Below are positions 25,735 through 46,531 of a stretch of DNA of 64,000 nt, piece after piece. Source of the DNA: an uncultured Methanosarcinales archaeon (lineage in GTDB: Archaea; Nanobdellota; Nanobdellia; Woesearchaeales; JAHJBD01); contig CAZHRT010000002.1 in the NCBI GenBank assembly GCA_964534665.1, forward strand, positions 42,231 to 106,230, in the 5' to 3' direction. Within the stretch, counting starts at the first letter, position 1. Every line of letters starts with the position of its first letter. The notes beneath the pieces are model-generated. The model was not told the origin of the DNA, ran no database searches, and worked only from the letters and a program-made list of their open reading frames with translations. Position numbers and translations under genes: made by a program.

Positions 25735-25744
25735 GGTGAAATAA

Positions 25745-25804
25745 ATGGGTGATGAAGGTTCCTGCGGTGGCGGTGGAAGTTGCGGCGGAGACAAAAAAGA
25801 ATAG
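25745..25804 (+). CDS. 19-aa Cys/Gly-rich peptide MGDEGSCGGGGSCGGDKKE (candidate precursor peptide)
   Basis: own translation; GAGGTGA SD 5 nt upstream overlapping rSAM stop; followed by T-tract. Confidence 0.4.
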   Translation: MGDEGSCGGGGSCGGDKKE

Positions 25805-25831
25805 GTGAAAAATTTCATCTAAAATTGATTA

Positions 25832-25851
25832 TTATTTTTTATTTTTTTATT
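25832..25851 (+). terminator. T-tract (archaeal-type) terminator after peptide gene
   Basis: TTATTTTTTATTTTTTTATT immediately before next gene SD. Confidence 0.4.
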
Positions 25852-25862
25852 GAGGTGAAAAC

Positions 25863-26489: not shown

Positions 26490-26499
26490 AGGTGATAAT

Positions 26500-27513: not shown

Positions 27514-27514
27514 A

Positions 27515-27985
27515 ATAAAATATATATTAATTGTAATAACCATATTATTACTTATTGGATGTACAGCTGAACAAGCAGATGTCCAGCCAGATGTAACAGA
27601 TACAATTGCAGATCTGCCGCCTGTTAATCCAACTCAAGAAGAGCCTAATACAGAAGAACCTATTGAAGAACCAGGACCAGAAAGCCTGCCACCTGAAAAA
27701 GGAGTAGCAGAAGATCTAGAACCAGACGCAGTAACAGAATCCACAGTCAATATTATTACAGTTGAAGAACTAGCATTACACGATAATGAAGAAGATTGCT
27801 GGATTGTTTATGAAGGCAGCATTTTTGATTATACAGGTGCTGGATTTCATCCAGCTATGGCAAAAGTATTTTGGAAATATTGTGGCGATGAAACTGGTTT
27901 TGAAGAAGGTGCAAAAGATAGACATTCAAATAGTGGTGTAGAAAGAGTTGAGAATTATGGTGAATATATAGGTGAACTAGAATGA
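27515..27985 (+). CDS. lipoprotein with cytochrome b5-like heme/steroid-binding domain; no canonical start codon
   Basis: own translation of frame after TGA at 27506: ...ILLLIGCTAEQADV...HDNEEDCWIVYEGSIFDYTGAGFHPA; no ATG/GTG/TTG between upstream stop and lipobox (candidate ATA/ATT start or frameshift). Confidence 0.35.
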   Translation: MKYILIVITILLLIGCTAEQADVQPDVTDTIADLPPVNPTQEEPNTEEPIEEPGPESLPPEKGVAEDLEPDAVTESTVNIITVEELALHDNEEDCWIVYEGSIFDYTGAGFHPAMAKVFWKYCGDETGFEEGAKDRHSNSGVERVENYGEYIGELE

Positions 27986-28125
27986 ACATGAAAGAAAATG
28001 ATGATATTACGGAAGAAAAAGAAGATGCAAAACAAAGATGTAAAGTTTGTGGCAAAGACTCTGGTGAAGACGGCCTTCACAAATGTGGGTGTTGTGGTCA
28101 ATGTTGTGAGTGTGGTGAGAAATGA
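27982..28125 (+). CDS. 47-aa Cys-rich peptide (metallothionein-like), ATGA-coupled on both sides
   Basis: own translation MNMKENDDITEEKEDAKQRCKVCGKDSGEDGLHKCGCCGQCCECGEK; AGGTGA 7 nt upstream. Confidence 0.4.
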   Translation: MNMKENDDITEEKEDAKQRCKVCGKDSGEDGLHKCGCCGQCCECGEK

Positions 28126-28928
28126 AAATATTTATTGATAGTGCAGATATTGATGAAATAGAAAAAGCCTATTCTTATGGTGTATTAGATGGTGTAACAA
28201 CAAACCCTAGCTTAATAAAAAAAGCTTCACAAAAACATAAAGTAAAAGATATGAATTCTTACATCAAGAAAATTCTTAAAGTTGCTCGTGGTACACCTGT
28301 AAGTTTAGAAGTTATTGGAAGCACGTATGATTCTATGGTTAAAGAAGGTAAAAAACTTTACAAGATGTTTAACCCGGTTGCAAAGAACGTTTACATAAAA
28401 GTTCCAGTAAATCCAGTTTTTGGTGATAAAATTAACCATTTTGATGGTTTAAAAGCTATTCAAGCATTTTCAAAAGCCAAGATTCCTGTAAACTGCACTT
28501 TAATCTTTACACCTGAACAAGCATTGTTAGCTGCTAAAGCAGGCGCTGCTTTTGTAAGCCCCTTTGCAGGGCGTATTGATGATTATATAAGAAAAGATAA
28601 TGGCAGAAATTTCAACAAAACAGATTATTTTCCAGAAGATGGTATAGAATCAAGAAAAGGCCTTTTGAATGATAACGGAATAGTTTCTGGTGTAGATTTA
28701 ATTGCACAAATAGTAGAAATATTTGATAATTACCAATTAAATACAGAAGTTTTAGCAGCTTCTATTAGAAATTCAAGACAAGCAAGAGAATCAGCTTTAG
28801 CAGGAGCAAACATCGCTACACTTCCTTTATCTGTAATTGAAGAATTACTTATACATCCAAAAACAATTGAAGGTATGGCAAAATTCACAGAAGATATTGT
28901 TCCTGAATATGCTAAATTGTTAAAATAG
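28122..28928 (+). CDS. tal: transaldolase / fructose-6-phosphate aldolase family
   Basis: MKIFIDSADIDEI...GVTTNPSLI signature. Confidence 0.75.
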   Translation: MKIFIDSADIDEIEKAYSYGVLDGVTTNPSLIKKASQKHKVKDMNSYIKKILKVARGTPVSLEVIGSTYDSMVKEGKKLYKMFNPVAKNVYIKVPVNPVFGDKINHFDGLKAIQAFSKAKIPVNCTLIFTPEQALLAAKAGAAFVSPFAGRIDDYIRKDNGRNFNKTDYFPEDGIESRKGLLNDNGIVSGVDLIAQIVEIFDNYQLNTEVLAASIRNSRQARESALAGANIATLPLSVIEELLIHPKTIEGMAKFTEDIVPEYAKLLK

Positions 28929-28930
28929 AA

Positions 28931-29416
28931 TTAACCTAAATAATTACTTGCTTCAGTACGTAAATTATCAATTTTTACTCCAAAACCACTAAGTCTTTCA
29001 ACTACAGCATCAAGTGCAGGAACTAATTGTTTGGCAGCTGATTGAACAGCTTCATATCTTTGATCTCTTGTTTCTAATCTTGCACTTGCAAGTGCTCTTG
29101 CTTCCCTAACAGGTGCATCTAAAGATTCTATTGTAGTATCAACACATTGCTGATAATTTGCTTCAATTTCTGCTCCAGCAGCTGGTTCACACATTGATAA
29201 ATCCATAAGAGGTTGCATATGGCTTTTACTTTGAGCTGCAGTTGCTGCATATTCAGTAGCAGTTTGTTCAGCAGCACGATATTCTGCATCAGCACTTTCA
29301 AATGTATCTCTAGCAGCTTCATATAATATAGTTTTTGAAACAAGAGAATGCAAATCTAGACTTAATCTTTGTATTTCCCCTAATTTAGGCATTCCATTAT
29401 CGTCGTTTTTAGCCAT
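28931..29416 (-). CDS. hypothetical Ala/Glu-rich coiled-coil protein
   Basis: 161 aa, atypical composition. Confidence 0.35.
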   Translation of the reverse strand: MAKNDDNGMPKLGEIQRLSLDLHSLVSKTILYEAARDTFESADAEYRAAEQTATEYAATAAQSKSHMQPLMDLSMCEPAAGAEIEANYQQCVDTTIESLDAPVREARALASARLETRDQRYEAVQSAAKQLVPALDAVVERLSGFGVKIDNLRTEASNYLG

Positions 29417-29508
29417 AATCTTGTTAACAGTTATGACTTTATAAAGCTGATCATTTTGTTACTACCCACAAGAAATAATGAAATAGCTTTGATTAAAATT
29501 TTAAATAT

Positions 29509-29541
29509 TTTTAACATAACCTTAATTTTAACATAACCTTA
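29509..29541. repeat. tandem 16-nt direct repeat TTTTAACATAACCTTA x2 in promoter region
   Basis: read directly; ~28 nt upstream of 29569 ATG; BRE/TATA-like content. Confidence 0.5.
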
Positions 29542-29568
29542 TATACTAACACAATTTCTAATCAATTT

Positions 29569-29952
29569 ATGGCAGAATTCGAACGTTCAAGAGGGAGAGG
29601 AAGAGGTTCTAGAGATAGTTCTTCAAGTAGAGGTAGACGTAGTTTTGATGATGGCCCAAGACGTAGTTTTGATGATGGTCCTAGAAGAAGAGATTCTAGT
29701 AGAGGGTCTGGTGGTTATGGCAGAGGTCGACGTGATGTTGAAATGACCAAAGTAACTTGTTCTTCTTGCGGTGTTGAATGTGAAGTCCCTTTCAAACCAA
29801 CTTCAAGCAAACCTGTTTATTGTAGTGAATGTTTTAGAAAAGATAAACCAGATTCTGGTTCTGATAGATCTTCTAAAGGAATTTCTGATAAAGACATTGA
29901 TCAAATTAACGAGAAACTTAATAAGATCATGAAAGCTTTAAAGATTGAGTAA
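29569..29952 (+). CDS. RG/RGG-rich protein with C-terminal CxxC...CxxC zinc ribbon
   Basis: RGRGRGSRDSSSSRGRR, internal tandem RRSFDDGP x2, CSSCGVEC...YCSECF. Confidence 0.5.
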   Translation: MAEFERSRGRGRGSRDSSSSRGRRSFDDGPRRSFDDGPRRRDSSRGSGGYGRGRRDVEMTKVTCSSCGVECEVPFKPTSSKPVYCSECFRKDKPDSGSDRSSKGISDKDIDQINEKLNKIMKALKIE

Positions 29953-30024
29953 ACTAATCCTATATTTGTAATTTATTAAATCCTATAACAAACATTTAAA
30001 AACATTGTAGATATCAACATTTTT

Positions 30025-32765: not shown

Positions 32766-33155
32766 TTATTCTTCTCTAATCATTGGTGGTACAGGATAAT
32801 AAAAATAATTGTAAATAATATCATACATTACATTTATACAAAACTCAAACTGTGTTGCACTTGTTAAATTATTCAACTCTTGAACCATCATGTCAATAAC
32901 TCCAACAGATTCTCTATTTTCAGGGGTAACTTTTTCCCAATCTGGCATATGATCTTCAAATCTTAAAGAAGGATTCCTTGTTTTTTTCATTCTATAATCT
33001 TGTTCTTTAAAATCTAGATAATGTTCTCTCCATGTTTTTATTGGATGTTCTTGTATATATCCTACAACAGCATTAAAGCCGTTTTCATCATACACCCTTC
33101 TAGCCATATAAATAGAATTATAATAATCTTGATTTAGTGGTATTCTTTGTGCCAT
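32766..33155 (-). CDS. hypothetical protein, operon gene 8
   Basis: 129 aa; tight spacing (10 nt) after upstream gene. Confidence 0.4.
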   Translation of the reverse strand: MAQRIPLNQDYYNSIYMARRVYDENGFNAVVGYIQEHPIKTWREHYLDFKEQDYRMKKTRNPSLRFEDHMPDWEKVTPENRESVGVIDMMVQELNNLTSATQFEFCINVMYDIIYNYFYYPVPPMIREE

Positions 33156-33164
33156 ATTTTTATA

Positions 33165-33956
33165 TTACTCTAAAAACAAGTCTCTACCTAACCTTCTTAG
33201 CTTATCTCTGTTCCAGTTAACAACAGCTTGCAAGAAAACTACATTCATTGGATTATCCATGTTTAACAACTCTTCTAAGTCTTCTTGTTTAACTTCAGGA
33301 TCAGATATCCTTTCATGGAATGCTTTGTAACACAATAATTCTCTTAGTTCAGTCATTGTTTGAGCAGCTTCAAGCCTTGCTTCATATCCTGGTAAAACTT
33401 CTTCATCCTCACCAAAGAAAGCTAGATAACAATTTGCAGCATACGCAGGGTCAGCACCTTCAGAAATGTCAGTAAATGCCGGATGTTTTCTAAAAAAATC
33501 AACATATTCATCAGAATTCATATCATTTTTTGGTAACTCTGATTGAACTTCCCCTTCAGGTGTTTTCAATATTGCTTTATACAATTTTGTGCCTGCAACC
33601 ATAACTACTTTATCTAAACTACTTCCTTTATAACACGCACCTAACCTAACTGGTTCTTTCTTTTCTTCCTCTTCTTCATCACCATGATAACCTCTACGTC
33701 GTCTTTTATTTGGTATTAAAATAATTCTCTTTTTAGTATACCTATAACATTCATCAGCCAAAGCTAATTTAGGAACACAATTCTCAGAACCGTCTGCTTT
33801 AGTTGTTAACATTGTAACTTGTGCAGGTAAATGTTCAATCATGTAATGTGCAAGTAAACTATTTCTTACACTTCTTGATGATAAATGTGTATATTGTACA
33901 TATGGTACTTGATGTGCAAATACATTTGTAACATTATCTGCGTGGTCTTGCAACAT
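33165..33956 (-). CDS. hypothetical protein, operon gene 7
   Basis: 263 aa; acidic EEEEEKKE patch; overlaps upstream gene. Confidence 0.4.
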   Translation of the reverse strand: MLQDHADNVTNVFAHQVPYVQYTHLSSRSVRNSLLAHYMIEHLPAQVTMLTTKADGSENCVPKLALADECYRYTKKRIILIPNKRRRRGYHGDEEEEEKKEPVRLGACYKGSSLDKVVMVAGTKLYKAILKTPEGEVQSELPKNDMNSDEYVDFFRKHPAFTDISEGADPAYAANCYLAFFGEDEEVLPGYEARLEAAQTMTELRELLCYKAFHERISDPEVKQEDLEELLNMDNPMNVVFLQAVVNWNRDKLRRLGRDLFLE

Positions 33957-34944
33957 TTTTCATTACCTCACAACATTTTAAGAATTGATCATAATCAATT
34001 TCTGCCATATAAATTTGATGATCAGCTTCATCAGTAAAATTAGGTCCACAAATTGTAAGCAATTGTCTTACAACACCAGATTTACGGAATATTCCTTTTC
34101 TTTCATAATAATCATAAACTGTTTTTCTTATTGTTTCTCTAAATGCATCCGCAGGGGTTTCATTAGGTCCAGGAATCTCATTTTTTCTAACTTCTTTTAT
34201 ACTAACAGTCTCAACACCATAATCATGATATAAACATACCCTCTTTCCTTCTCTTTTTAAAACAAGGTATCTTCCAGAAAAAGTAGCTTCTACATGCCCC
34301 CTTCTTTTTTGAGCACTATTATGCATTACTCTAATATGACTTTTTCCACCTCTATAATTACCTGTTTCAAACTCTTCAGCAAGAATTTCTAATGGGTCTT
34401 CTTCTTCAAAAGGTTCCTCATCAACAATTTCTGCCATATCTGTTCTTTGTCTTAATGCAACATAATCTCCAACTCTTATCTTAGTACCAGGACTTTGTGT
34501 TGGTATTAATCTTTGTAATGATGTTGGATCATAATTTGCTTGTTCTTCACATGTTCTTACTGTAGTTTGTGTTCCATCCCAATGACTCTGTCTTTTTGCT
34601 GTAACAACACCAATACCTGTTCCACGATTATATCCACCATAAAAACTAAATGAACCAAAAGCAGGAATTCCAACAGCAACAACATCGCCCTCATTAATCT
34701 CTCCACCTTTGTCCATTTTTAAATAAGTGTGTTCTAAACCTAAAGCTCTGATAGTATAATCTAAAAAATTTTCATCTGCTTTTGGTCCATCAACAAACAC
34801 TCCAGTATCAGCCATAATATCTTCCCATAATTGAAATTTAAACCTATCATGGAATAAAGTATTAGCAGTATTTCTAAGTCTCTGAACTAGTGTTTCTAGT
34901 TGAGGTGTTTGTGTTTGTGCAAATGCTCTTACTGCTTTAATCAT
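33934..34944 (-). CDS. hypothetical protein, operon gene 6
   Basis: 336 aa; 4-nt overlap with gene 5. Confidence 0.4.
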   Translation of the reverse strand: MIKAVRAFAQTQTPQLETLVQRLRNTANTLFHDRFKFQLWEDIMADTGVFVDGPKADENFLDYTIRALGLEHTYLKMDKGGEINEGDVVAVGIPAFGSFSFYGGYNRGTGIGVVTAKRQSHWDGTQTTVRTCEEQANYDPTSLQRLIPTQSPGTKIRVGDYVALRQRTDMAEIVDEEPFEEEDPLEILAEEFETGNYRGGKSHIRVMHNSAQKRRGHVEATFSGRYLVLKREGKRVCLYHDYGVETVSIKEVRKNEIPGPNETPADAFRETIRKTVYDYYERKGIFRKSGVVRQLLTICGPNFTDEADHQIYMAEIDYDQFLKCCEVMKNVARPRR

Positions 34945-35849
34945 CTTAGCTTCTCCTCGCCTAGTGCTAAAGTATATTGCAATACAGTATGATAAAACAT
35001 AGTTGGGATATCTATTCTTCCCTGTAATAATCTATCAATATTACATTCTATTACTTGATCATCAACAAATTCTTGGTATGTTTTTATTCCTGTTAATAAA
35101 ACAAGATCAAAAGCAGACTTTGCTTTTCTTAATGGTGCTTCAAAACCTTCAATTGAAGGATAAAAAACATTTGCAGCAATAACTGCTCTTGGGTCTAATG
35201 GTACTAGACATTGACCAGGTTTTTCATAAGGTTCAGTTCTTTCTTTTTTGAAAGTTTTAGGTGTCTTTATTGTGCCTGATTCAGGAAGCCCCCAATGCTG
35301 ATAATAAAGGTGCACCAAAGATTTTGTATAAATTCCAAGGGCAATACCTCTTGCTAACTCATCAATTGGTTTTTGAGCAAAAGCATGTCTTTTTTCTTTA
35401 TACTTTTCCTTATCATCTCTATGTACAAATTCTTCTTCATGTTTATGATTAATTAAATAAGTTTGATGAATTCTTATTAAAGAAATTCTTTTAATTGCAT
35501 CATTGATATTGCCTGCTGAAGCAGCAAGTACAACCCCTAAGAAAGGACTAGTAGCAGAACTCATTGATTTAGTTTCAGAACATAAGTACTCAAGTAAGCA
35601 TATTGTTGAAGCATCGTATAATTCAGGTAAATCACCTTCTACTGTAGCATCATGATCATCCCACATCATAGCCCTTCTTCTACTTTGTCCAACCTCAAAC
35701 TTTGCAGTCTTGCTTCTTGCAAGACAACTAGCTATTTTCATGATAGGATCAAAAGGTTGTCCTTCTAATTCAACCATCTCTTCTTCAGGCGCTTGAACTG
35801 TTTGTTGCCTTAATTCTCTTATAATTGATGCAGTAAGATCATCTGACAT
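34941..35849 (-). CDS. hypothetical protein, operon gene 5
   Basis: 302 aa; 11-nt overlap with E1-like gene. Confidence 0.4.
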   Translation of the reverse strand: MSDDLTASIIRELRQQTVQAPEEEMVELEGQPFDPIMKIASCLARSKTAKFEVGQSRRRAMMWDDHDATVEGDLPELYDASTICLLEYLCSETKSMSSATSPFLGVVLAASAGNINDAIKRISLIRIHQTYLINHKHEEEFVHRDDKEKYKEKRHAFAQKPIDELARGIALGIYTKSLVHLYYQHWGLPESGTIKTPKTFKKERTEPYEKPGQCLVPLDPRAVIAANVFYPSIEGFEAPLRKAKSAFDLVLLTGIKTYQEFVDDQVIECNIDRLLQGRIDIPTMFYHTVLQYTLALGEEKLR

Positions 35850-37287
35850 TGTGTTCTAAAGCACCTCCTTTAACATGGTTGCAAACTCCATCCTTATTTT
35901 GTACAAATAATCTTCCAGGTTGTTGTGGATCATAGGTGACCATTCCATTAAATACAGCACCATATTGTTCTGGAAGAAATATGTTAGCTAACATCATTGA
36001 TGATAAAGCACCAACACTTTGATTTATCCAAGTATTTTGTGGAGTAAATTCTCTACCACAACTCTGTCTTCTTTTAGCTTCATCTTTTTCTCCAAGATCA
36101 TTAATACCAAAATTACAATCAAAACATAATGTTGTATTAGGAACATAAACTTCAAGGTCAAAACCATCAGACCGTCCTGATGCACTTACTAAAGGTGTAA
36201 AATCTCCTATTGCTCTATGGCTTACTAACATTCTAGAATATAAATTATCAAACCCATCAAAATATACATCATATCCTCTTGAAGGGTTCCAATCAGGTGT
36301 AAGTTTCTCTATTATTGCATCTGATTTAGTATCTTGATCAGAGATAAAACTAACTTTACCTTGAGCTGCAAAAGCTTTATCAAAACCTACTCTATCATAA
36401 TAAAGAAATGTTCTAATTACATTTGATCTTTCAACATCATCATAATCAAGAAAATCTACTCTGCCAAAACCTAACCTTGCAAGCCAATAACCAACATTAG
36501 CACCTACAGCACCTGCACCATAAACTAAAGCACTTTTTTCTCTAAACATCTCTGGGTCTAATACCATAAGTTCATCATCAATTGTTTTAGGTCTAAACAT
36601 ATCATCATTATCCCCTAATTTAAAATACAAAGGTGCTGTTGTTGTTTCATCTTTTCCTAATACTGCTTTAACTGCTTCATCAGCAGCAATACCAGACATA
36701 AAAGCAGCTACAATTTCTGTTGTAACATCTAAAGCAGCCCTACTAGCATCAACTTTTTGTTCAAGTGTACTCATGCCATTCATAAAAAGGTGTTTAGATG
36801 GATCTTGACCAGGACGCCAAACTGCCATCTTAGCATAACCTGGTATTGTAGAAGTACTGATAAAAGGAATTTGATTTTTTAATGCATAACTAAGTGCAAC
36901 AGCTTTTGACCTTTCATCTGTAGTACAATCAATTATTACCTTTGAATTTTCTAAAAATAGTGCAGGGTTTCCATATCCTAATTGCCCTTCAATTCCAGCA
37001 ACATTTTGCATGGGGGTCATTTGATTAAAAGCAGAATCATAAGCATGAGCTCTTGCTCCAGGAGAAGTTTCAATATCAATAACTTTTTCATCTTCTCCAG
37101 TTTGCGATGCCCCAACAAGTTTTACTGGCATACCAGACATTGCAAAGGGTAAACCAAAATATTTGCCTGCAACACTATCAAATACAACAGTAACAACAGA
37201 TTTCTGAAGTTTTTCAAGGCCATCTCTACCTACTGCTCTTATCAACCTATCAAATCTATCCATATCTAAATTAGGCACGGCTATCAC
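35839..37287 (-). CDS. tandem-domain ThiF/MoeB/E1-like enzyme (degenerate N-terminal E1-like domain + intact C-terminal adenylation domain)
   Basis: C-domain KSALVYGAGAVGANVGYWLARLGFGRVDFLDYDDVERSNVIRT, YDVYFDGFDNLYSRMLV, PLVSASGRSDGFDLEVYV...LCFDC align block-for-block with E. coli MoeB; N-domain RFDRLIRAVGRDGLEKLQKSVVTVVFDSVAG and KVIIDCTTDERSKAV keep the fold signature but lose the GxGxxG loop. Confidence 0.75.
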   Translation of the reverse strand: MIAVPNLDMDRFDRLIRAVGRDGLEKLQKSVVTVVFDSVAGKYFGLPFAMSGMPVKLVGASQTGEDEKVIDIETSPGARAHAYDSAFNQMTPMQNVAGIEGQLGYGNPALFLENSKVIIDCTTDERSKAVALSYALKNQIPFISTSTIPGYAKMAVWRPGQDPSKHLFMNGMSTLEQKVDASRAALDVTTEIVAAFMSGIAADEAVKAVLGKDETTTAPLYFKLGDNDDMFRPKTIDDELMVLDPEMFREKSALVYGAGAVGANVGYWLARLGFGRVDFLDYDDVERSNVIRTFLYYDRVGFDKAFAAQGKVSFISDQDTKSDAIIEKLTPDWNPSRGYDVYFDGFDNLYSRMLVSHRAIGDFTPLVSASGRSDGFDLEVYVPNTTLCFDCNFGINDLGEKDEAKRRQSCGREFTPQNTWINQSVGALSSMMLANIFLPEQYGAVFNGMVTYDPQQPGRLFVQNKDGVCNHVKGGALEHNVR

Positions 37288-38758
37288 CCATACTAATCAA
37301 TAAAGGAATATAATGTTCAATTATACCTGAAAGATATGCTAAATCTGTTCCTTTAAACCGATCAATAAATTCTCTTCCTAATTCATCTGTTTCAGCATCT
37401 GCCCACGATATTATCATAGGTTTGCTAAGTTTATCAACAGGGGGTTTTAACATCATACCTTCTGCATTTACAATATCTTCAAACAAGGGACCAACTCCTT
37501 GAACAGCATCATCTAAATGATATTCTGATTGTTGCCATTGGTTATCTAAGAATTCTGAAAAAAGTGAAAACATATACATTGAATATTTTGCTTGTTCATC
37601 TGTGCAATGTTCTGTATAATATCTTACGGCATCATAAAATTGCTCAGCAGGGGTTGTTTCTTTGCTACCTTTTGCAACCATTGTTACAGATTCAGATGGC
37701 CAATATTTTTTCCATAAATCATAAGCAGCATCGCCAAACAAACCTTCTTTTGCTCTAAGTGCATTTCTTTTATCTGCATGATGAGAACCAGCATAATGGA
37801 CAGATACAGTCTTTTTATTCCAACTAACTTTTCTGTCAACTTCTTCTTCTAAACTATCCCATGTAAAAGGAATTCCTCTTCCAGAATCAATAACATTAAC
37901 ATCAACAAAAAATGATTCTTCATATGTTCCATCAACTGCACCTTGTGCAAGCAATGCAATCTCACCAAATACTTGGGATGCATCTTGATTATATATCAAA
38001 CTTGTTGCAGTACTAACAAACCTATTTTGTTCAGCAGTAATTCTTACTTGTCTTTCAAGATGTCTTGCAATAACTGCTCTTAAACCACCAACAGGTTCAA
38101 GAACTTGCGCATCTAAACCAATATCTCTAAGAAAAGCTCTTTCTTCATCAACACTACCTAACCCATAAATCAATGTAATGTCATTTTGATCAGCACCAAC
38201 TAACCTTAAACTATCTCCATCTAAAGAAGTTCTAAACCCACTAGTGTGATCAAAACAGTCTGGATGTTGGCTAAGAAATTCAGTTGCTCTTGCTTGCCAA
38301 TGTAAATAATCAGACAAATTCCTAACATCTTTACTCAAAGACCTTACTGGCATTCCAGTACAAAAACCATGTCTATGCACAATACCAGTCATTATTAATT
38401 CTTGATCTGTACCTAATCTACCTTCCCCTTGATTTCTTTGATATAATTCATCTAATGCTCTTTTAGCTTCTATTGGATTAAAATCAACATCACCACCAGT
38501 TACAATCTGTTTAACTTGTAATAATGTATCAATTATCAGTGCTGGGTTATCAGCTTCAGATAAATTATAACCATACCATTCATAATGGTTGCCACTAAGT
38601 TCATCTAATATTACACCTACTGCACTATTTTTTTCATGAGCAACAGTATCAATTGTTACTTCTTGAAAAGGTAAAAGATATGATCTATCTTCTTTTGGAG
38701 CTAAAGCTGCTTGTACTGCCATTAATTCTCTTTCATCAGCTGATCTATCTCCTTGCAC
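37271..38758 (-). CDS. hypothetical protein, operon gene 3
   Basis: 495 aa; overlaps neighbours by 17 and 14 nt. Confidence 0.4.
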   Translation of the reverse strand: MQGDRSADERELMAVQAALAPKEDRSYLLPFQEVTIDTVAHEKNSAVGVILDELSGNHYEWYGYNLSEADNPALIIDTLLQVKQIVTGGDVDFNPIEAKRALDELYQRNQGEGRLGTDQELIMTGIVHRHGFCTGMPVRSLSKDVRNLSDYLHWQARATEFLSQHPDCFDHTSGFRTSLDGDSLRLVGADQNDITLIYGLGSVDEERAFLRDIGLDAQVLEPVGGLRAVIARHLERQVRITAEQNRFVSTATSLIYNQDASQVFGEIALLAQGAVDGTYEESFFVDVNVIDSGRGIPFTWDSLEEEVDRKVSWNKKTVSVHYAGSHHADKRNALRAKEGLFGDAAYDLWKKYWPSESVTMVAKGSKETTPAEQFYDAVRYYTEHCTDEQAKYSMYMFSLFSEFLDNQWQQSEYHLDDAVQGVGPLFEDIVNAEGMMLKPPVDKLSKPMIISWADAETDELGREFIDRFKGTDLAYLSGIIEHYIPLLISMGDSRA

Positions 38759-40178
38759 CCTTTTTTACCTCATGTATATTTGTTAACATATAACCTTGGG
38801 CTTGAGCAGAATCTTTTGTTAATAAAAAACCAGAATCAAGTAATTCTGCTTGTTGATCAAGGTTATAATGTCTATCAATAAAATCTTGTCTAAAACTATC
38901 TAAGAAATTTGTAGTTGCATAATTAAGAAATTCTATAAATCCTTCAGCACTCATAGGAAAATTAGGATATCCACCTACATGACATATTGTTCTTAATTTT
39001 CCATATCTTGTTCTCATGACTGGATCAACAATATTTACTTCTGAATAGAATGGTGCATCTTCTTTTATAGACCCACGATAAGTTACTCCACCTTCATTTT
39101 CATGATAACCAAGATATTGAATTTTTCCTTGTCTAAATACTAAGCCAATTCCAAAATCTCCAGCAAAACCATCATCATCACAATCTTTTGGTAAAAATAG
39201 ATTAGCATCATAAGTTGTTTGTCTTGCAAATTTAGGAATTCTCTTAAACACATAATAAATTTCACCATTACGATAAAAACCAATGTCTCTAAACCTAAAT
39301 TCATCACAATCCATTAACGGCATATACTCAACATCTTTCATAACAACCTTTTCCATATTATGTACTGCATCTCTAATCATTTCAAGTGCAGCAATTCTTA
39401 TTGTATGGGAAAACATACTAGAATAATTAGATTTTATTCTTGAAGCACTGAATAATTTAGGATTGTAAGTTCTAGTTTGACCATCAACACATACATGGAG
39501 GTCTTTATCATCTCCTTCTTTATCTAATTGGTATACTTTTCCTCCCAATATTAACATAGGCACATTTCTACTTACTTTTGAAAATATTGATGCTTCTCTT
39601 ACACTAAGTTCTCTTATTGCATGAGTATCATTTGGTAATTCCTCTGAAGCTAATCCAAAATTATCCCTAAAATCTCTATCCAGTTGTTCTTCAAGCCTTG
39701 CAACAGCGTGTGTCCTAACCTCAACAGTCTTTACTTGTCTCTCAATCTGATCACCCATTGCTTCAGCAATAATTTCTGAACCAGTTGGTACTTCTGTTTT
39801 ACCAGAGACTATTGCATCTACTCTATCTTCTAAAGGTGCAGCTATCATCTTAGGAAATATTTCATCAACAATAAACTTTAACAAATTATATCTGTGCGTA
39901 AAATCAAGAACACTTTTCCCATCCCTTTGTAGATGATCTTCAATATAATCAGTTTTTACAGTTTCAATTTCATCTCTGCTTTCTAATCTTGTTGCTCTTT
40001 CAATATCACTTATAGGTGTTCCACAACTTAAAGGGAAAAAAACTTGGCTGTCACCAACTCTTTGAACTAATGTATTTTCTGTTGCATTAGTTGTTGGCAT
40101 TCCAATAGAATATAGTCTATCACCAAAAAGCACCATGCTTTGACGATTATCAATAGCATGATCCAAAAAGGTCTTCAT
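38745..40178 (-). CDS. hypothetical protein, operon gene 2
   Basis: 477 aa. Confidence 0.4.
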   Translation of the reverse strand: MKTFLDHAIDNRQSMVLFGDRLYSIGMPTTNATENTLVQRVGDSQVFFPLSCGTPISDIERATRLESRDEIETVKTDYIEDHLQRDGKSVLDFTHRYNLLKFIVDEIFPKMIAAPLEDRVDAIVSGKTEVPTGSEIIAEAMGDQIERQVKTVEVRTHAVARLEEQLDRDFRDNFGLASEELPNDTHAIRELSVREASIFSKVSRNVPMLILGGKVYQLDKEGDDKDLHVCVDGQTRTYNPKLFSASRIKSNYSSMFSHTIRIAALEMIRDAVHNMEKVVMKDVEYMPLMDCDEFRFRDIGFYRNGEIYYVFKRIPKFARQTTYDANLFLPKDCDDDGFAGDFGIGLVFRQGKIQYLGYHENEGGVTYRGSIKEDAPFYSEVNIVDPVMRTRYGKLRTICHVGGYPNFPMSAEGFIEFLNYATTNFLDSFRQDFIDRHYNLDQQAELLDSGFLLTKDSAQAQGYMLTNIHEVKKGARR

Positions 40179-40180
40179 TT

Positions 40181-40918
40181 TTACTGAACCATATATTCAA
40201 GATTACCTGGGCTACCCTTTCTTGCTACTGTAGCAGGAGCTCTGTAAACAGTCGGCTTTTTAGGTTGAGCAACCTCAGCAGCTGTTGGTTTACCATCTCC
40301 TTCAGCAATTGTAGCTTGGGCTCTATGTTTACCTTTATGAATTCTAAAATATTGCCTAAATTTCCTTGTTGTTCCTTTATTTACAGGTTGTCCATCTAAA
40401 GTCATAATAACTTCTTCTAAAGCATCATCCCCATGAGCCCTTTCATATGTATCATATAATCCTCTTGCAATTCTTCTATCTGTAGAATCAGTAAATACAC
40501 CTTTATCTTGATTTTGTCTGATTAACTGAACTAGAGCATCATAAGCAGGCATGTCTAATACTGTTGGATTACATACAGCAATTGCACAATCATCAGCTCT
40601 GCTTGTTGGACCAATATGTGCTAAATAAACATCTTGTACTGTTGGTGTAGCAGCAGGCCTTGCGGTTTGTGCAGGTCTAGAAGCAGGTGTAGGTTCTTGG
40701 GTTCTACTTTCTCCTGTAGTAGGTGGTTGATAGCTTGCAAAATCAGCTCTACCAGCACCAGGCCTATACCCTGTAATTTCAATTTCTGTTTGGCCTTTAG
40801 GAACACCAGAAACAAAACAAGTTTTACCACTTGGTAAATTTATTCTTGCATCCTCCTGTCTTCCAAAACCTAGAACTCTAAACTTTTGACCTTCAAATGG
40901 ATTTTCATCATTTGCCAT
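40181..40918 (-). CDS. hypothetical protein, operon gene 1 (Pro/Ala/Thr-rich linker between N- and C-terminal regions)
   Basis: 245 aa; 2 nt before gene 2. Confidence 0.4.
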   Translation of the reverse strand: MANDENPFEGQKFRVLGFGRQEDARINLPSGKTCFVSGVPKGQTEIEITGYRPGAGRADFASYQPPTTGESRTQEPTPASRPAQTARPAATPTVQDVYLAHIGPTSRADDCAIAVCNPTVLDMPAYDALVQLIRQNQDKGVFTDSTDRRIARGLYDTYERAHGDDALEEVIMTLDGQPVNKGTTRKFRQYFRIHKGKHRAQATIAEGDGKPTAAEVAQPKKPTVYRAPATVARKGSPGNLEYMVQ

Positions 40919-41029
40919 ATTAATGCCCCCTATATATGATTATATTTATAGAGAAAAAGGATTGAATTTATAAATATTTATATCCTTAGTGGTGGTAAAA
41001 ATGTTATTATAATAACGAATATTTTATCC

Positions 41030-41494
41030 TCAAAGCTTTTTTTCATAATAAATAGAATCAATACCTTTTCCCCTATCATTTTTCACAACTTTAGAAACTT
41101 TAAAACCAATTTTAGGATAGAATCTTGTTGTAATTTCATTTGTTGACCAAGTTCTTAATTTAACCAAACCTATATCCTTAGATTTTAAATCTTTAAGACA
41201 TTTATCAATCAACATTTTGCCTAAACCCTTTCGCCTATGATCCTTAATTATTGAAATTGTATCAATATAAGCTGAATTAAATTTTTCATTGAAATAAAAA
41301 TAAGTAATCATAGCAATTATCTTGCCTTTTTCCTTGATATAGATAATATTTCCTTCTTTGATGACTGGATCAATAAACTCTCTAAGGGAACACCTTTTTG
41401 ATAATTGTGGATAATAATAAGAATCAATAACTTTAAAGAAATCTAAGACTCCATCATACTCTCCAGGTTTATCAGAATATTCAATTGTTTCCAT
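41030..41494 (-). CDS. GNAT-family N-acetyltransferase
   Basis: motif A DHRRKGLGKMLI. Confidence 0.7.
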   Translation of the reverse strand: METIEYSDKPGEYDGVLDFFKVIDSYYYPQLSKRCSLREFIDPVIKEGNIIYIKEKGKIIAMITYFYFNEKFNSAYIDTISIIKDHRRKGLGKMLIDKCLKDLKSKDIGLVKLRTWSTNEITTRFYPKIGFKVSKVVKNDRGKGIDSIYYEKKL

Positions 41495-42547: not shown

Positions 42548-43114
42548 TTATTGATCATCAAAAGATTTTATACAAGTTTTACATTCCTGTTTACAATTTG
42601 TTTGTTTAGAATTCTCTGGGTCAATGTTTAAAGGCATTATAAAATCCTTTACAGTTGAAATTACAATATTTAATTCAACATCTTTAACTTTAGGGTTTCC
42701 TCTTAGATGATGGTTTACAATTCCCTCTAATTGTTCAAGTCCTGTTGCCATAAAAAATAAACATAGATTATGTTTACCTGAAGTAATTAATGCATTAATA
42801 AAAAAAGGACAATCCTTAAATTCCTCAACTATCGCATTAGTATCCGTTGAAGTAACATCAATTTTTGCTAATGATAAATCAACTGTCTTAAAATTAATAC
42901 CATTTATCGTGTTTATTACACCTTTTTGTTGCAACTTTTTTATCCTTGCACCAACTGAGGGCTGTGAAAGTTTAATTTTTTTAGCAATCTCTTCTTGTGA
43001 TACGTTTGGATTTTTTTGAAGTAGGCTGATTATGATATTGTCTCTATTATCTAAATCTAACTTAGATTCAATACCACAACTATGTTCTTCAATTTTATTA
43101 AAATTCTTAGTCAT
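42548..43114 (-). CDS. HTH (Lrp/AsnC-like) transcriptional regulator with Cys-rich C-terminus
   Basis: N-terminal IISLLQKNPNVSQEEIAKKIKLSQPSVGARIKKLQQKGVI; C-term CKQECKTC. Confidence 0.45.
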   Translation of the reverse strand: MTKNFNKIEEHSCGIESKLDLDNRDNIIISLLQKNPNVSQEEIAKKIKLSQPSVGARIKKLQQKGVINTINGINFKTVDLSLAKIDVTSTDTNAIVEEFKDCPFFINALITSGKHNLCLFFMATGLEQLEGIVNHHLRGNPKVKDVELNIVISTVKDFIMPLNIDPENSKQTNCKQECKTCIKSFDDQ

Positions 43115-43256
43115 TTTCCTCTCAACTAGAGGATAATAACCCCTAATATTTAAATATTTCCTTTTTATTATAATCTTAATAAAGTAAAAACTTATATTCT
43201 ATAGTAATACTATTTATATATCTCTGCGTTACTTAATACTATAATGAGAAAAATTG

Positions 43257-43292
43257 TCCTGCAACTAACACCTTTTAATTGCAGGACGATAA
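43257..43292. promoter_or_regulatory. 9-bp GC-rich perfect hairpin GTCCTGCAA-N14-TTGCAGGAC in divergent intergenic region
   Basis: read directly; the only GC-rich element in an AT-rich spacer. Confidence 0.4.
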
Positions 43293-43311
43293 CATCTCAT
43301 AGGTGGTTAAA

Positions 43312-43425
43312 ATGGAATACAAATGTGATTGCGGAAATGTCTGTAATGTTGAAAAACAAACAGAAGGATTTGGTGATGATAGTATAACCATTAAGTGTAC
43401 TTGTTGTGGTGCAGAATTACAATAG
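43312..43425 (+). CDS. 37-aa Cys-rich peptide MEYKCDCGNVCN...KCTCCGAELQ
   Basis: own translation; AGGTGG SD 5 nt upstream. Confidence 0.35.
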   Translation: MEYKCDCGNVCNVEKQTEGFGDDSITIKCTCCGAELQ

Positions 43426-43487
43426 CAAAGCTATAGGTTTAGGCCCCTTTTCCTTAGCTGCTAAAAAATAGAGTGAGGTGATTACAA

Positions 43488-43511
43488 ATGTGTGGAGATG
43501 GATGTTGTTAA
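43488..43511 (+). CDS. 7-aa micro-ORF MCGDGCC with perfect SD and T-tract terminator
   Basis: GAGGTGA 6 nt upstream of ATG; followed by TTTTTTTATTTTTTTATTTTTT (43531-43551). Confidence 0.3.
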   Translation: MCGDGCC

Positions 43512-43566
43512 AAAATAAGTAAAAACAGATTTTTTTATTTTTTTATTTTTTATCATTCTACATGAG

Positions 43567-44067
43567 GTGATTAAAACATCAATTAACGATATTATTCAGG
43601 AATTAAGACAAGGTAAGATTGATCAGATTGAATTATATTTAGATTATAATGGTCAAGTTAACAAGATTATGATAAATAATGCAATGAAAAAACAAAAAGA
43701 AGTCAGGAAGGTAAGTCTAAAAGGAAATAAATTGCCAAATGTAAATTTTAGTCAAACAAGAATAAAAGGAAATTTCTCAGGACTTACCCTTTCTGGCTCA
43801 AACTTTTCATATTCAACAATTGAGACAGCAGACTTTTCAAGCACTAATCTGTATGGTGCTGATTTTAATAAAGCAAAAATCTCACAAACAAACATGTCAT
43901 CAGCATATAACGCAAATTTGGGAAATGCATATATGACTGGATCAGTTAATTTATATAATGTTAATCCAGAAAATACACATTCATATAATCCAAGAACAAC
44001 AGAAGTAAAAATGCTTGATGATACACAAGATATAAATAGGGTAATCCTATCAAAGAGAAATTATTAA
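43567..44067 (+). CDS. pentapeptide-repeat protein
   Basis: tandem A(D/N)LxG-like pentapeptides NFSQTRIKGNFSGLTLSGSNFSYSTIETADFSSTNLYGADFNKAKI; start uncertain (track GTG lies inside SD; in-frame ATG at 43669). Confidence 0.6.
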   Translation: MIKTSINDIIQELRQGKIDQIELYLDYNGQVNKIMINNAMKKQKEVRKVSLKGNKLPNVNFSQTRIKGNFSGLTLSGSNFSYSTIETADFSSTNLYGADFNKAKISQTNMSSAYNANLGNAYMTGSVNLYNVNPENTHSYNPRTTEVKMLDDTQDINRVILSKRNY

Positions 44068-44077
44068 AGGTGATATT

Positions 44078-44662
44078 ATGAAAATAATTAATAAAAGAAA
44101 AACAAATTATGATGTGAACTCTATTTTTCCAAAGAGGTGGTCTCCTAGAGCCCTTTCAGGAGAAAAGATAACAAAAACACAGTTAATGAAACTATTTGAA
44201 GCTGCACGTTGGTCTCCTTCATCTTATAACAACCAGTCATGGAGATTTATTTATGCAATGAAAGGAACTAAACAATTCCAGACATTGTTTAAAATATTAG
44301 CACCACCAAACCAAGTATGGTGTAAAAATGCTTCAGTTTTAATTGTAATTGTATCAAAGAAAACATTTGATTATAATAAAAAACCATCAATTACACATTC
44401 TTTTGATACAGGCGCAGCTTGGATGAGTTTAGCTTTGCAAGCTTCTATGTCTGGTTTAGTAGCGCATGGTATGCAAGGGTTAGATTATGTTAAAGCACAA
44501 AAACAACTTAACATACCTAAAGATTATCAAGTTGAAGCAATGTGTGCAATTGGAAAAAAAGGCAAAAAATCCTTACTTCCAAAAGAAATGCAAGCAATAG
44601 AAATGCAATCAGACAGGAAACCAATAACCAAGATTGCCTTTGAAGGCAAATTTAAAAGGTGA
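44078..44662 (+). CDS. nitroreductase-family protein
   Basis: RWSPRALSGEKI...AARWSPSSYNNQSWRF. Confidence 0.7.
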   Translation: MKIINKRKTNYDVNSIFPKRWSPRALSGEKITKTQLMKLFEAARWSPSSYNNQSWRFIYAMKGTKQFQTLFKILAPPNQVWCKNASVLIVIVSKKTFDYNKKPSITHSFDTGAAWMSLALQASMSGLVAHGMQGLDYVKAQKQLNIPKDYQVEAMCAIGKKGKKSLLPKEMQAIEMQSDRKPITKIAFEGKFKR

Positions 44663-44666
44663 TAAA

Positions 44667-45230
44667 ATGGTAAATATAAATGATAAAGCACCTGAATTTA
44701 CAGAAGATGCTTTAATAAACAATGAAATTAAAAAAATTAGTCTATCAGATTATAAAGGTAAATGGGTAGTATTATTCTTCTATCCAGCAGATTTCACATT
44801 TGTCTGTCCAACAGAACTTGGATCTTTAGCTGATAACTATGATACTATTAAGTCAATGAATACAGATGTTATTAGTGTAAGCACAGACACAGCTTTTGTA
44901 CATAAAGCCTGGCACGACCATTCAGATACAATCAAAAAAATTAAGTTTCCAATGTTAGCAGATCCTACAAGAAGAGTATGTAAATCATATTGGACATTAA
45001 TTGAGAATGAAGGCCTTTCACTCAGAGCAACTTTCATCATTGATCCAGAAGGAATTGTAAAAGCCTTTGAATTTAATGACTTAAGTATTGGAAGAAGTAG
45101 TGAAGAAATTATCAGAAAACTTCAAGCTGCACAATTTGTGGCAGAACATGGTGATCAAGTGTGTCCAATGAACTGGAAACCCGGTGAAAAAACATTAACA
45201 CCTGGATTAGATTTAATAGGTAAGATATAA
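44667..45230 (+). CDS. peroxiredoxin (AhpC/2-Cys Prx type)
   Basis: FFYPADFTFVCPTEL peroxidatic Cys motif; start at ATG after AGGTGA (track starts 44634). Confidence 0.8.
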   Translation: MVNINDKAPEFTEDALINNEIKKISLSDYKGKWVVLFFYPADFTFVCPTELGSLADNYDTIKSMNTDVISVSTDTAFVHKAWHDHSDTIKKIKFPMLADPTRRVCKSYWTLIENEGLSLRATFIIDPEGIVKAFEFNDLSIGRSSEEIIRKLQAAQFVAEHGDQVCPMNWKPGEKTLTPGLDLIGKI

Positions 45231-45236
45231 TAACAA

Positions 45237-45280
45237 AAACTTTACAATTAAGATTATAAATTATAATTAATGTAAAGTTT
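45237..45280. promoter_or_regulatory. near-perfect 14-bp inverted repeat AAACTTTACAATTAA-N15-TTAATGTAAAGTTT between prx and grx/trxB operon
   Basis: read directly; one bulged A. Confidence 0.45.
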
Positions 45281-45357
45281 GTGGAATTGAAAAATATAAT
45301 GATTTTTCAATAAAATATATAAAGAAAGAGAACAAAAACGACTATGAGGTGTTTATT

Positions 45358-45591
45358 ATGGGAAATATAACTGTATATTCAACACCAACTTGCCCTTGGT
45401 GTAAGAAAGTTAAAGAATGGCTAAAAGAAAAGAAAATTGAGTTTAAAGATATTGATGTATCAGAAAACGAAGATGCTAGAAATGTAATGGTTGAAAAATC
45501 AGGACAAATGGGTGTTCCAGTTATTGATGCAAACGGCACAGTTATAGTTGGCTTTGATGTCGATAAACTAGAAAAAGCAATCAAATCATAA
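45358..45591 (+). CDS. glutaredoxin-like / NrdH-like small redoxin
   Basis: YSTPTCPWCKKVKEWL CPxC; GAGGTG SD. Confidence 0.7.
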   Translation: MGNITVYSTPTCPWCKKVKEWLKEKKIEFKDIDVSENEDARNVMVEKSGQMGVPVIDANGTVIVGFDVDKLEKAIKS

Positions 45592-45592
45592 G

Positions 45593-46531
45593 ATGTATGA
45601 TATAGCAATAATCGGTAGCGGCGTATCAGGCTTAGGTGCTGCACTTTATGCAGGTCGATTTGAACTAAAAACTATTGTAATAGGTGATAAATCAGGGGGT
45701 ACAATCATCTTAACAGATGAAATTGCCAATTATCCTGGTTTTTCTAACATTTCTGGTATTGACCTTGCAGACAAACTAAAAAAACATGTGCAAGATTATG
45801 ATGTAGAATTTCTAGATTCTAAAGTAAAAGATATTAAGAAAGGAAAAACATGTTTTGGTTTATCTACAGTTAATAAGAACATCAGAACAAAAACAATAAT
45901 CTTCGCTACAGGAACTGAATGGAAAAAATTAAAAGTTCCAGGAGAGTCAGAATTCACAGGTAAAGGCGTACATTATTGTGCACTATGCGATGGTGCATTC
46001 TATAAAAATAAAATTGTTGCAGTTGTTGGTGGTTCTGATTCAGCTGCAAAAGAAGCACTTTTATTAACAAAATATGCTAAAAAAGTCTACATCATCTATC
46101 GTGGTGAAAAGATTAAACCTGAACCAATCAATGAAAAGAAAGTTGCAGCAAATAAACAAATAGAAATTATCAATTATACTAATGTTACTAAAATAAAAGG
46201 GGATAAGTTTGTTTCTTCAATTATTTTAGATAAAGAATACAAAGGCAATAAAGAATTGAAGCTTGATGGGTTATTTGTTGATATTGGTCATATTGCATTA
46301 TCAAAAGAAGCTAAAGATCTTGGAGTAAAACTAAATGAAAAAGGCGAGATAATAATCAACTGTGATGGTAATACAAACATTCCCGGAGTTTTTGGTGCAG
46401 GTGATGTTTGCAATACAAAATTCAAGCAAGCAATAACTGGTGTTGCTGAAGGTGTTAGTGCAACTTATTCAGCATATACTTATGTAACAAACACAAAAAT
46501 ATTATGTACAGACGATGAGGTAGAAAAATGA
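45593..46531 (+). CDS. trxB: thioredoxin-disulfide reductase
   Basis: FAD site YDIAIIGSGVSGLGAA, redox CALCDGAFY, NAD site VVGGSDSAAKEAL. Confidence 0.85.
   Translation: MYDIAIIGSGVSGLGAALYAGRFELKTIVIGDKSGGTIILTDEIANYPGFSNISGIDLADKLKKHVQDYDVEFLDSKVKDIKKGKTCFGLSTVNKNIRTKTIIFATGTEWKKLKVPGESEFTGKGVHYCALCDGAFYKNKIVAVVGGSDSAAKEALLLTKYAKKVYIIYRGEKIKPEPINEKKVAANKQIEIINYTNVTKIKGDKFVSSIILDKEYKGNKELKLDGLFVDIGHIALSKEAKDLGVKLNEKGEIIINCDGNTNIPGVFGAGDVCNTKFKQAITGVAEGVSATYSAYTYVTNTKILCTDDEVEK

Follow-up and report, generated by a model that had tools for sequence, protein, structure and literature searches.

Complete conjugation pathways of the ubiquitin type, with an activating enzyme (E1), a conjugating enzyme (E2), a deubiquitinase and a tag, are few outside eukaryotes: those of Caldiarchaeum and the Asgard operons, and the bacterial Bil, Bub and type II CBASS (cyclic oligonucleotide-based anti-phage signalling system) pathways. 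They are central to the debate on the origin of ubiquitination. In the Bil system the genes stand in the order BilA (tag), BilB (E2), BilC (JAB peptidase) and BilD (E1) (PMC11601596). We found the same order, tag-E2-JAB-E1, in the first four genes (g1-g4) of a seven-gene cassette (g1-g7) on the minus strand of an archaeal contig (CAZHRT010000002.1), within a stretch of 64,000 nucleotides (nt) that we call the window. The likeness to BilABCD extends to a tandem-domain E1, which is likely here (PMC10557695), to a candidate tag precursor whose tail would have to go to expose a C-terminal Gly, and to the fact that no RING or HECT E3 was recognised (PMC10557695, PMC11601596). We read the cassette as a divergent ubiquitin-like conjugation pathway of a Woesearchaeota-type (DPANN) archaeon, with a probability of about 0.68. 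If so, machinery of the eukaryotic ubiquitination kind reaches further among prokaryotes. Support is strong for the E1 and JAB peptidase assignments and moderate for those of the E2 and the tag; there is none for a role of g5-g7 or for a biological purpose. The components are so divergent that standard annotation sees 'ThiF' alone. The cassette and the sites discussed below lie in the window as follows.

g1, 40181-40918, minus strand: 245 residues; candidate modifier (tag) precursor.
Codons of g1 Gly238 and of the tail NLEYMVQ, 40184..40207 (Gly238 = 40205-40207), minus strand: proposed cleavage site exposing a C-terminal glycine.
g2, 38745-40178, minus strand: 477 residues; two small beta domains and long helices N-terminally, an E2-like domain C-terminally.
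g2 C-terminal domain (about residues 288-470), 38769..39317, minus strand: putative non-canonical UBC/E2 fold with invariant Asp385-Pro386 and Cys399-His400; Cys399 codon at 38982-38984.
g3, 37271-38758, minus strand: 495 residues; predicted JAB/MPN+ (JAMM-type) metallopeptidase domain at about residues 30-165, then a conserved C-terminal extension.
g3 metal-site motif H128-R-H130 ... S140 ... D144, 38327..38377, minus strand: columns invariant in eight sequences.
g4, 35839-37287, minus strand: E1-like activating enzyme; 482 residues from GTG at 37287, 474 from ATG at 37263 (the start used by public gene callers).
g4 sub-domains, minus strand: putative inactive-type N-terminal domain at about 36589-37263, active adenylation domain at about 35842-36588.
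g4 Cys402 codon, 36058..36060, minus strand: in the crossover-loop insert (...RRQSC...); candidate catalytic cysteine.
g5, 34941-35849, minus strand: 302 residues; conserved partner, no recognised fold.
g6, 33934-34944, minus strand: 336 residues; fastest-evolving conserved partner.
g7, 33165-33956, minus strand: 263 residues; conserved partner, no recognised fold.

The order g1-g2-g3-E1-g5-g6-g7 recurred in about ten divergent Woesearchaeota-type lineages and was kept in every locus long enough to show it, with E1s 42-54% identical. The genes next to the cassette differed, being RNA polymerase and NusA in one locus (L014), SRP54 in another (L015) and acetyl-CoA synthetase and a rotamase in a third (L017). 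Since the same order was retained despite divergent E1s and unlike neighbours, g1-g7 is a conserved cassette. The first-pass annotation had described an eight-gene unit and proposed looking for it in other genomes. Seven genes were indeed kept as a unit (six in L017, the only locus without g3, where E1 begins 15 nt after g2), while the eighth, g8, gave no tblastn match in any other locus fetched and probably lies outside the conserved cassette; in L014 a convergent gene follows g7. Among 5.8 billion proteins the E1 formed nine clusters at 90% identity, all named members being 'Candidatus Woesearchaeota archaeon', and g2 formed ten orthologue clusters. When 185,579 species were scanned, each represented by one genome, two loci came up, both already recovered; a first metagenome scan found no related loci. 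Our literature search found no paper linking DPANN or Woesearchaeota to such a cassette.

A distant cassette was also recovered (L024:5851-21449; also L025-L027). It encodes proteins of 229 residues, 482 (g2-like), 593 (JAB-like), 485 (tandem E1) and 822, all co-directional and tightly spaced. Upstream of it are a class-V aminotransferase and a 647-residue protein, and downstream three radical-SAM genes, one with a B12-binding domain. Linkage of this type may tie some family members to sulfur or radical chemistry.

Residues 248-412 of g4 matched Pfam ThiF with an E-value of 1.7e-33, above the gathering score, and profile searches of the PDB returned ThiF, UBA5, SAE2, MccB, MoeB, Cap2, UBA1/6/7 and BubCD, in agreement with the earlier assignment of the C-terminal half of this 482/474-residue protein to the ThiF/E1 domain. 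An alignment of nine sequences had invariant G249xG251xxG254, D273, N281, R284, K296, D336xxD339 and R344, as well as C380xxC383, C402, C461, H471 and the N-terminal R3 and R6. By Pfam match, invariant residues and PDB matches, g4 thus belongs to the E1-like (ThiF/MoeB/UBA) adenylating enzymes. It falls outside the named equivalogs, as its best NCBIfam scores were far under the cut-offs (ThiF 72.9 against 275, MoeB 58.3 against 266, UbaA 39.8 against 450). A housekeeping role in molybdopterin or thiamine synthesis was rejected on account of these scores and of the E2/JAB context. Cys402 lies in an insert of about 20 residues between C383 and the TPQN motif, a position which we take to be the crossover loop of ThiF/MoeB-type enzymes; it is a candidate catalytic cysteine, a role that we infer from these alignments.

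A conserved N-terminal domain of about 225 residues precedes the active domain. When the two halves of g4 were compared with hhalign, 'IDCT..SK..S.S' was placed on 'DGFDN..R..SAS', a weak alignment (P 0.022). The E1 of the distant cassette L024 is 29% identical to g4 over the full length, and its N-terminal domain retains a GxGxxG Rossmann loop with weak matches to NAD-binding Pfam families. A tandem-domain E1, with inactive and active adenylation domains, is therefore likely; the earlier proposal of such an enzyme is plausible, if weakly shown by the sequence of g4 itself. In BilD a zinc site is formed from the crossover loop and the C-terminus, and the N-terminal domain supplies an arginine (PMC10557695). 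The cysteine/histidine set and the N-terminal arginines of g4 correspond in pattern to these features.

We found that g3 is, on strong grounds and with three independent lines of evidence in agreement, a predicted JAB/MPN+ peptidase, for which zinc binding and cleavage are predicted. The family alignment showed invariant E60 (YEWYGY), H128-R-H130, S140 and D144, giving the motif E...HxHx9Sx2-3D, with three residues between S140 and D144 in the window and two in most orthologues. When the family was aligned with hhalign to the 908-residue protein in the same position of a related locus (L031), 221 columns were matched (probability 87%, E 4e-6) and all five motif residues coincided. The L031 protein has a canonical E-W...HSHx7SPTD motif and matches Pfam Prok-JAB (E 3.9e-5) and the Caldiarchaeum Rpn11 homologue, which was one of the best matches, in structure as in sequence, to the JAB proteins of this cassette family. 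The 593-residue protein of L024 aligned with the g3 family over 439 columns (E 2e-5). The AlphaFold model of g3 was poor, with a predicted local distance difference test score (pLDDT) of 44, and was searched for fold class only; its secondary-structure order fits the MPN fold (strand, helix, two strands, helix, strand ending in HxH, helix starting with S..D). g3 itself had no match in Pfam, also when family members were included, or in the PDB profile search, and hhalign to human Rpn11 aligned the 'VGxxHxH' stretch only (P 0.14).

The C-terminal domain of g2 is probably a non-canonical E2, as judged from family motifs and a predicted structure. In the AlphaFold2 model (pLDDT 75.6) two small beta domains are joined by long helices and followed by an alpha/beta domain at about residues 288-470. 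The UBC fold consists of a four-stranded meander and a crossover helix. The best structural match of the C-terminal domain was the E2 BubB; a Foldseek search of the g2 model against the PDB gave no match. HMMER with the g2 profile against 1.84 billion representatives retrieved 134 clusters at E<=1e-3 and 60 at E<=1e-10, named members being 'archaeon' or Woesearchaeota. This wider family shares the motif Y-x-P-F-P-x-x-K-V-A-V ... H-P-F-x(8-11)-I-C, with H, P and C each present in at least 90% of sequences, which resembles the UBC signature YPFxPPKV...HPN...C. In the window the motif reads ...VDP...TIC399H, in which D385-P386 and C399-H400 are invariant; the spacing of the HPN-like motif is four residues longer than in canonical E2s and the Asn is replaced. 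With hhalign, only YPFKPPKVAF of UBE2D2 aligned to g2, on IPFPSTKISV, and weakly (P 0.036).

The match to BubB has a possible counterpart in the active site, since in both proteins a His lies close to the nucleophile and an Asp upstream of it (S333/H335/D299 in BubB, C399/H400/D385 in g2). Bub systems (6E/DUF6527) also resemble the cassette in having an E1 without a separate CYS domain. They differ in forming Ser/Tyr oxyesters, in a homodimeric E1 that is often fused to JAB or E2, and in the DUF6527 serine protease; in the cassette the candidate nucleophiles are cysteines, the E1 is a likely single-chain tandem-domain protein, the genes are separate and no DUF6527 was found with Pfam.

A tag precursor role for g1 is supported by sequence to a moderate degree. 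From the N-terminus, the protein has a beta-rich domain of about 65 residues, a linker rich in Pro, Ala and Thr, a central domain that is conserved (residues 96-200 or so), another linker and a C-terminal motif. Inspected by eye, the N-terminal domain resembles a TRAM/OB-type barrel, without a Pfam match. At the C-terminus an alignment of five sequences showed an invariant T-x-x-R-[KR]-G-x-P-G followed by a variable tail, NLEYMVQ in the window and HETLDDLI, SRLELLV or IESLL in orthologues (4-8 residues). In the g3-less locus L017, g1 ends exactly at ...RKGRPG*; this single co-variation fits g3 as a tail-removing peptidase. Ubiquitin-like modifiers expose a C-terminal Gly directly or after removal of a tail, and in this family 0-8 residues follow G-x-P-G, with cleavage predicted. 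The position of g1 is occupied in related cassettes by small proteins that end in GG and 4-5 further residues. These were found directly upstream of the g2-like gene in all four relative loci recovered (L031, L028, L023, L029), two of which encode a canonical JAMM protein and one a tandem E1; they end ...AVPGG|NCRYI (L031), ...SKQTGG|YSRYA (L028 and L023) and ...SKQTGG|NSMY (L029), the bar marking the end of the GG. g1 showed no sequence similarity to ubiquitin, ThiS or MoaD and no match in Pfam (family members included), PDB or NCBIfam.

The first-pass annotation had recognised no ubiquitin-like protein with a GG tail, no UBC-fold E2 and no clean JAMM HxHx7Sx2D motif among the partners of the E1. 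Candidates for all three can now be named: g1, from its invariant ...RKGxPG and short tail; g2, from 'VDP...TIC399H' ('HPF...IC' in the wider family) and the model match to BubB; and g3, from a loosened motif (E60...H128xH130-x9-S140-x3-D144) and the MPN fold. These assignments, obtained from family alignments and relatives, favour the first of the two options left by that annotation, an E1-dependent conjugation system with highly divergent partners, and make the second, an adenylation-driven peptide or metabolite pathway, the less likely reading.

From the domain assignments, which are what the data contain, we infer each step of the following scheme. The JAB protein g3 would cut the g1 tail after Gly238 to leave ...RKGSPG-COOH. 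The E1 g4, a single-chain pseudo-dimer of inactive and active adenylation domains, would adenylate Gly238 with ATP/Mg, and the activated glycine would then form a thioester with Cys402 in the crossover loop. The tag would be handed on from g4 to Cys399 of the E2-like domain of g2, which would place it on a target lysine, possibly aided by the long N-terminal arm of g2 and by g5-g7. g3 could also remove the tag.

The tail of g1 may be read in another way. In a peptide or natural-product pathway an E1-like enzyme would act, like MccB or PaaA, on the C-terminus of a precursor (g1 or its tail), with g3 as leader or tail peptidase and g2 and g5-g7 in tailoring or immunity. In the PDB the E1 family profile matches MccB best (E 5e-12) and PaaA as well, g1 carries a conserved C-terminal peptide after a disordered linker, and radical-SAM genes adjoin one relative (L024). 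The MccB match, however, covers the generic adenylation core alone (profile positions 252-416), and the N-terminal half of g4 would be a second Rossmann-like domain, not an RRE-like peptide clamp. A conserved Gly with a variable tail that is absent in one orthologue fits tag maturation and not a core peptide. Genes for a transporter, for immunity or for YcaO are missing from the cassette, and the E2-like and JAB assignments also speak against such a pathway, which we consider very improbable.

Several observations count against a conjugation pathway. The JAMM spacing in g3 is x9, not the canonical x7. The active-site loop of the g2 model (399-402) has pLDDT <50. The E1 has no mobile CYS domain (about 80 residues) as in canonical E1s, its cysteine lying in a loop as in UBA5/MoeB-type enzymes. 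A low-complexity linker of about 40 residues separates the last conserved domain of g1 from the Gly, which in known ubiquitin-like proteins directly follows the folded domain, and hhalign of the g1 family against the GG-ended small proteins was weak (E 1.4e-3, probability 17%, 46 columns at 'TLDGQPV'/'IVNGKAV'). Finally, the distant cassette L024 is flanked by a class-V aminotransferase gene on one side and by three radical-SAM genes on the other, a hint of chemistry involving sulfur or cofactors.

The last point leads to a sulfur carrier as an alternative: E1 would adenylate the g1 Gly for conversion to a thiocarboxylate, and the sulfur would pass to a cofactor, tRNA or metabolite (compare ThiS/ThiF, MoaD/MoeB and TtuB/TtuC with a JAMM protease), g2 and g5-g7 being scaffolds or unrelated. 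JAB proteins also process sulfur carriers, for example in CysO/Mec+. Among named proteins, ThiF and MoeB are closest in sequence to the adenylation domain, and the L024-L027 cassette is co-directional with the aminotransferase, of the cysteine-desulfurase family, and with the radical-SAM genes. Such neighbours are absent next to the cassette in the window and in the L031 type. The E1 has no rhodanese domain by Pfam, and the gene calls for 10 kb to each side include neither a rhodanese nor a desulfurase; the NCBIfam scores for ThiF, MoeB and UbaA given above point the same way. An E2-like domain with an invariant Cys-His, conserved in every locus, would be left unexplained, and so would a tandem E1. 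The combination of inactive and active domains in one E1 is typical of conjugation (Bil, eukaryotes) and not of the E1 homodimers of sulfur transfer (PMC10557695). Taken with this evidence, a sulfur carrier appears unlikely, if less so than a peptide pathway.

Returning to conjugation, we compared the cassette with described systems for differences. The cassette does not belong to the Bil families by sequence, PADLOC and Pfam seeing the generic ThiF core alone. Its E1 carries one Cys in the crossover-loop insert of about 20 residues, compared with the mobile CYS domain of about 80 residues in BilD. The E2-like domain ends a 477-residue protein with long helical arms, and the JAB protein has a C-terminal extension of about 330 residues and a loosened motif. 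The candidate tag is 245 residues long and has its Gly at the end of a long, flexible tether; it is a beta-grasp candidate at most. Three extra conserved genes (g5-g7) and the archaeal host complete the contrast with BilABCD. The operons of Caldiarchaeum subterraneum and Asgard archaea resemble the cassette in being archaeal and in encoding E1, E2, JAMM and modifier together, but they have a recognisable ubiquitin, a canonical HPN UBC E2 and a small RING E3, none of which could be detected by sequence here. SAMP/UbaA/HvJAMM1 and ThiS/MoaD share the E1-like adenylation of a C-terminal glycine and, in archaea, a JAMM protease; UbaA, ThiF and MoeB are single-domain homodimers without an E2, unlike the cassette with its E2-like protein and probable tandem E1.

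The three remaining conserved proteins, g5-g7, had no match in Pfam, PHROG, PADLOC or NCBIfam, the g5 and g7 profiles had none in the PDB, and no RING-type Cys/His pattern was seen by eye. More generally, g1-g3 and g5-g8 gave nothing in Pfam, PHROGs, PADLOC and NCBIfam; Pfam searches of all sequences in the g1, g3 and wider g2 families returned noise only, and hidden Markov model profiles of g1, g2, g3, g5, g7 and the E2-like domain had no meaningful match among PDB sequences. An alignment of five g5 orthologues showed invariant F-D-P-x-x-K-I-A near the N-terminus and A-A-N near the C-terminus. g6 orthologues were 17-28% identical, compared with 30-55% for other cassette proteins, and contain acidic and basic stretches and short 'GDxV' beta-like modules. 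In g7 (four orthologues) Cys176 (A-A-x-C-Y-L), His214-Glu-Arg and N-W-N-x-D were invariant, and it is a speculation from sequence that the Cys and His could form a thiol active site.

Relatives of the cassette have a single protein of 822-902 residues after the E1. hhalign of g5, g6 and g7 against these large proteins was not significant, the best being g6 against the L031 protein (P 0.007), and the idea that g5-g7 are a split form of it was rejected as unproven. The 902-residue protein of L031 (L031:6051-8759) has a weak match to NlpC/P60, a papain-like cysteine peptidase family (E 0.0067, residues 630-698). If real, some cassettes would have a second thiol-type peptidase or transferase, and the Cys/His pair of g7 could be analogous.

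A bolder form of the conjugation reading, which we regard as rather doubtful, is that the cassette represents an undescribed, self-contained DPANN branch of ubiquitin-type conjugation. Its tag would be a 25-kDa multi-domain protein instead of a compact GG-tailed beta-grasp, with an N-terminal barrel that looks nucleic-acid-binding and a glycine on a flexible tether, and g5-g7, with new folds, would act as a target-selection or ligase module. If true, this would be a new way of building a tag and an 'E3' step, and the E1 could be an archaeal counterpart or ancestor of the tandem-domain E1 of eukaryotes and Bil. Together with the wider family (at least 134 clusters, all named members archaeal), the cassette would mean that genome-reduced archaea of the DPANN group possess a tandem E1, an E2-like enzyme with Cys-His and a JAMM peptidase. 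A tethered reactive glycine, if confirmed, would widen the definition of a ubiquitin-like modifier, and g5-g7, as three conserved proteins without detectable relatives, are candidates for a new module of target selection. g1-g4 form a compact gene set that can be tested by reconstitution.

As to purpose, a conjugation cassette could serve against viruses or mobile elements, as in Bil or type II CBASS, with g5-g7, and especially g6, recognising the invader; this would refine the conjugation reading and not contradict it. The gene order is that of the antiphage BilABCD, the distribution is patchy (about ten clusters among 5.8 billion proteins, two of 185,579 species genomes), the neighbours differ in each lineage, g6 diverges faster than the other proteins (17-28% against 30-55% identity), and some population copies have an E1 split by a 1-bp indel. 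Yet PADLOC recognised the generic E1 core alone, no known defence genes or regulators (CapW, CapH/P) are adjacent to the cassette, whose neighbours are housekeeping genes, and two scans of viral contigs found no relatives. Codon usage is fully host-like, and there is no experimental system for DPANN viruses. We consider such a role in conflict with viruses or mobile elements plausible but unsupported, and hold the defence reading to be possible rather than probable.

The remaining features of the operon are the following.

g8, 32766-33155, minus strand: 129 residues; co-directional, 9 nt after g7.
Upstream intergenic leader, 40919..41029, minus strand: 111 nt, A/T-rich; contains a TATA-like stretch and, 8 nt ahead of the g1 ATG, a GGGGG that resembles a ribosome-binding site, as read from sequence.

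All eight minus-strand open reading frames (ORFs) listed in the first-pass annotation proved to be real, with the same coordinates and lengths. The tight packing it described also held, with overlaps of 4-23 nt and gaps of 2-9 nt, except that one overlap exceeds the 4-17 nt given there (g6/g7, 23 nt). The other junctions are a gap of 2 nt (g1/g2), an overlap of 14 nt (g2/g3), an overlap of 17 nt or a gap of 7 nt (g3/g4, from the GTG start or the ATG start of the 474-residue form), overlaps of 11 nt (g4/g5) and 4 nt (g5/g6), and a gap of 9 nt (g7/g8). The leader is the sole gap of more than 10 nt on the minus strand adjoining the operon and is the probable site of its promoter.

An Arg/Ala/Gly/Asp/Gln bias of the operon had been proposed to mark a distinct origin. 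The bias was seen in g1-g7, with R+A+G+D+Q fractions of 0.28-0.41 against 0.19-0.21 in flanking genes, and K+I+N fractions of 0.12-0.16 against 0.24-0.32, but not in g8, which has a host-like composition (0.23 and 0.19, respectively). GC at third codon positions was equal to or lower than in the flanks (0.11-0.19 in the operon, 0.16-0.21 in the flanks). As it is as low as in the flanks, the difference in composition is a matter of the proteins and does not point to recent import, so that a distinct origin in this sense is not upheld by the fully host-like codon third positions. Recent horizontal transfer was rejected for the same reason, and a prophage or virus because there were no PHROG matches and no viral contigs.

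Identical copies of the whole region were found in many marine oxygen-minimum-zone assemblies (Joint Genome Institute 3300022902 and others; contigs up to 325 kb). In two copies (L002:7040-8463 and L009:15815-16545, corresponding to window 35839-37263) the 1-bp indel splits the E1 into ORFs of 281 and 130 residues, and all other copies are 100% identical to the window over 8.4 kb. The indel may be a real inactivating variant or an assembly error.

A 154-residue GNAT acetyltransferase is encoded at window 41030-41494 on the minus strand, 111 nt upstream of g1 and in the same direction. A 155-residue GNAT also precedes the g1 homologue on the contig of P0007 (E1 47% identical) and is absent from this position in L014, L015 and L017, so the link may reflect synteny of close lineages rather than function.

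ARAGORN found no tRNA genes in the whole 64-kb window. By gene calls, the low-coordinate side beyond UPF0182 (window about 20000-30000) encodes glucose-6-phosphate dehydrogenase, a 6-phosphogluconolactonase-like protein, 6-phosphogluconate dehydrogenase and transaldolase of the oxidative pentose-phosphate pathway, adjoined by ferredoxin-thioredoxin-reductase-like, DsbD-like and radical-SAM/SPASM proteins, a molybdopterin oxidoreductase domain and DUF3179. It is unusual for archaea to have the full oxidative branch of this pathway. On the high-coordinate side (window about 42548-52000) the gene calls comprise a pentapeptide-repeat protein, nitroreductase, peroxiredoxin, glutaredoxin, a thioredoxin-reductase-like protein, ferritin and desulfoferrodoxin, and the run continues with SepF, a ZPR1-type zinc ribbon, an iron-dependent repressor and FeoAB. 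Such a series of genes for oxidative stress and iron is what one would expect of an anaerobe exposed to oxygen in an oxygen-minimum zone.

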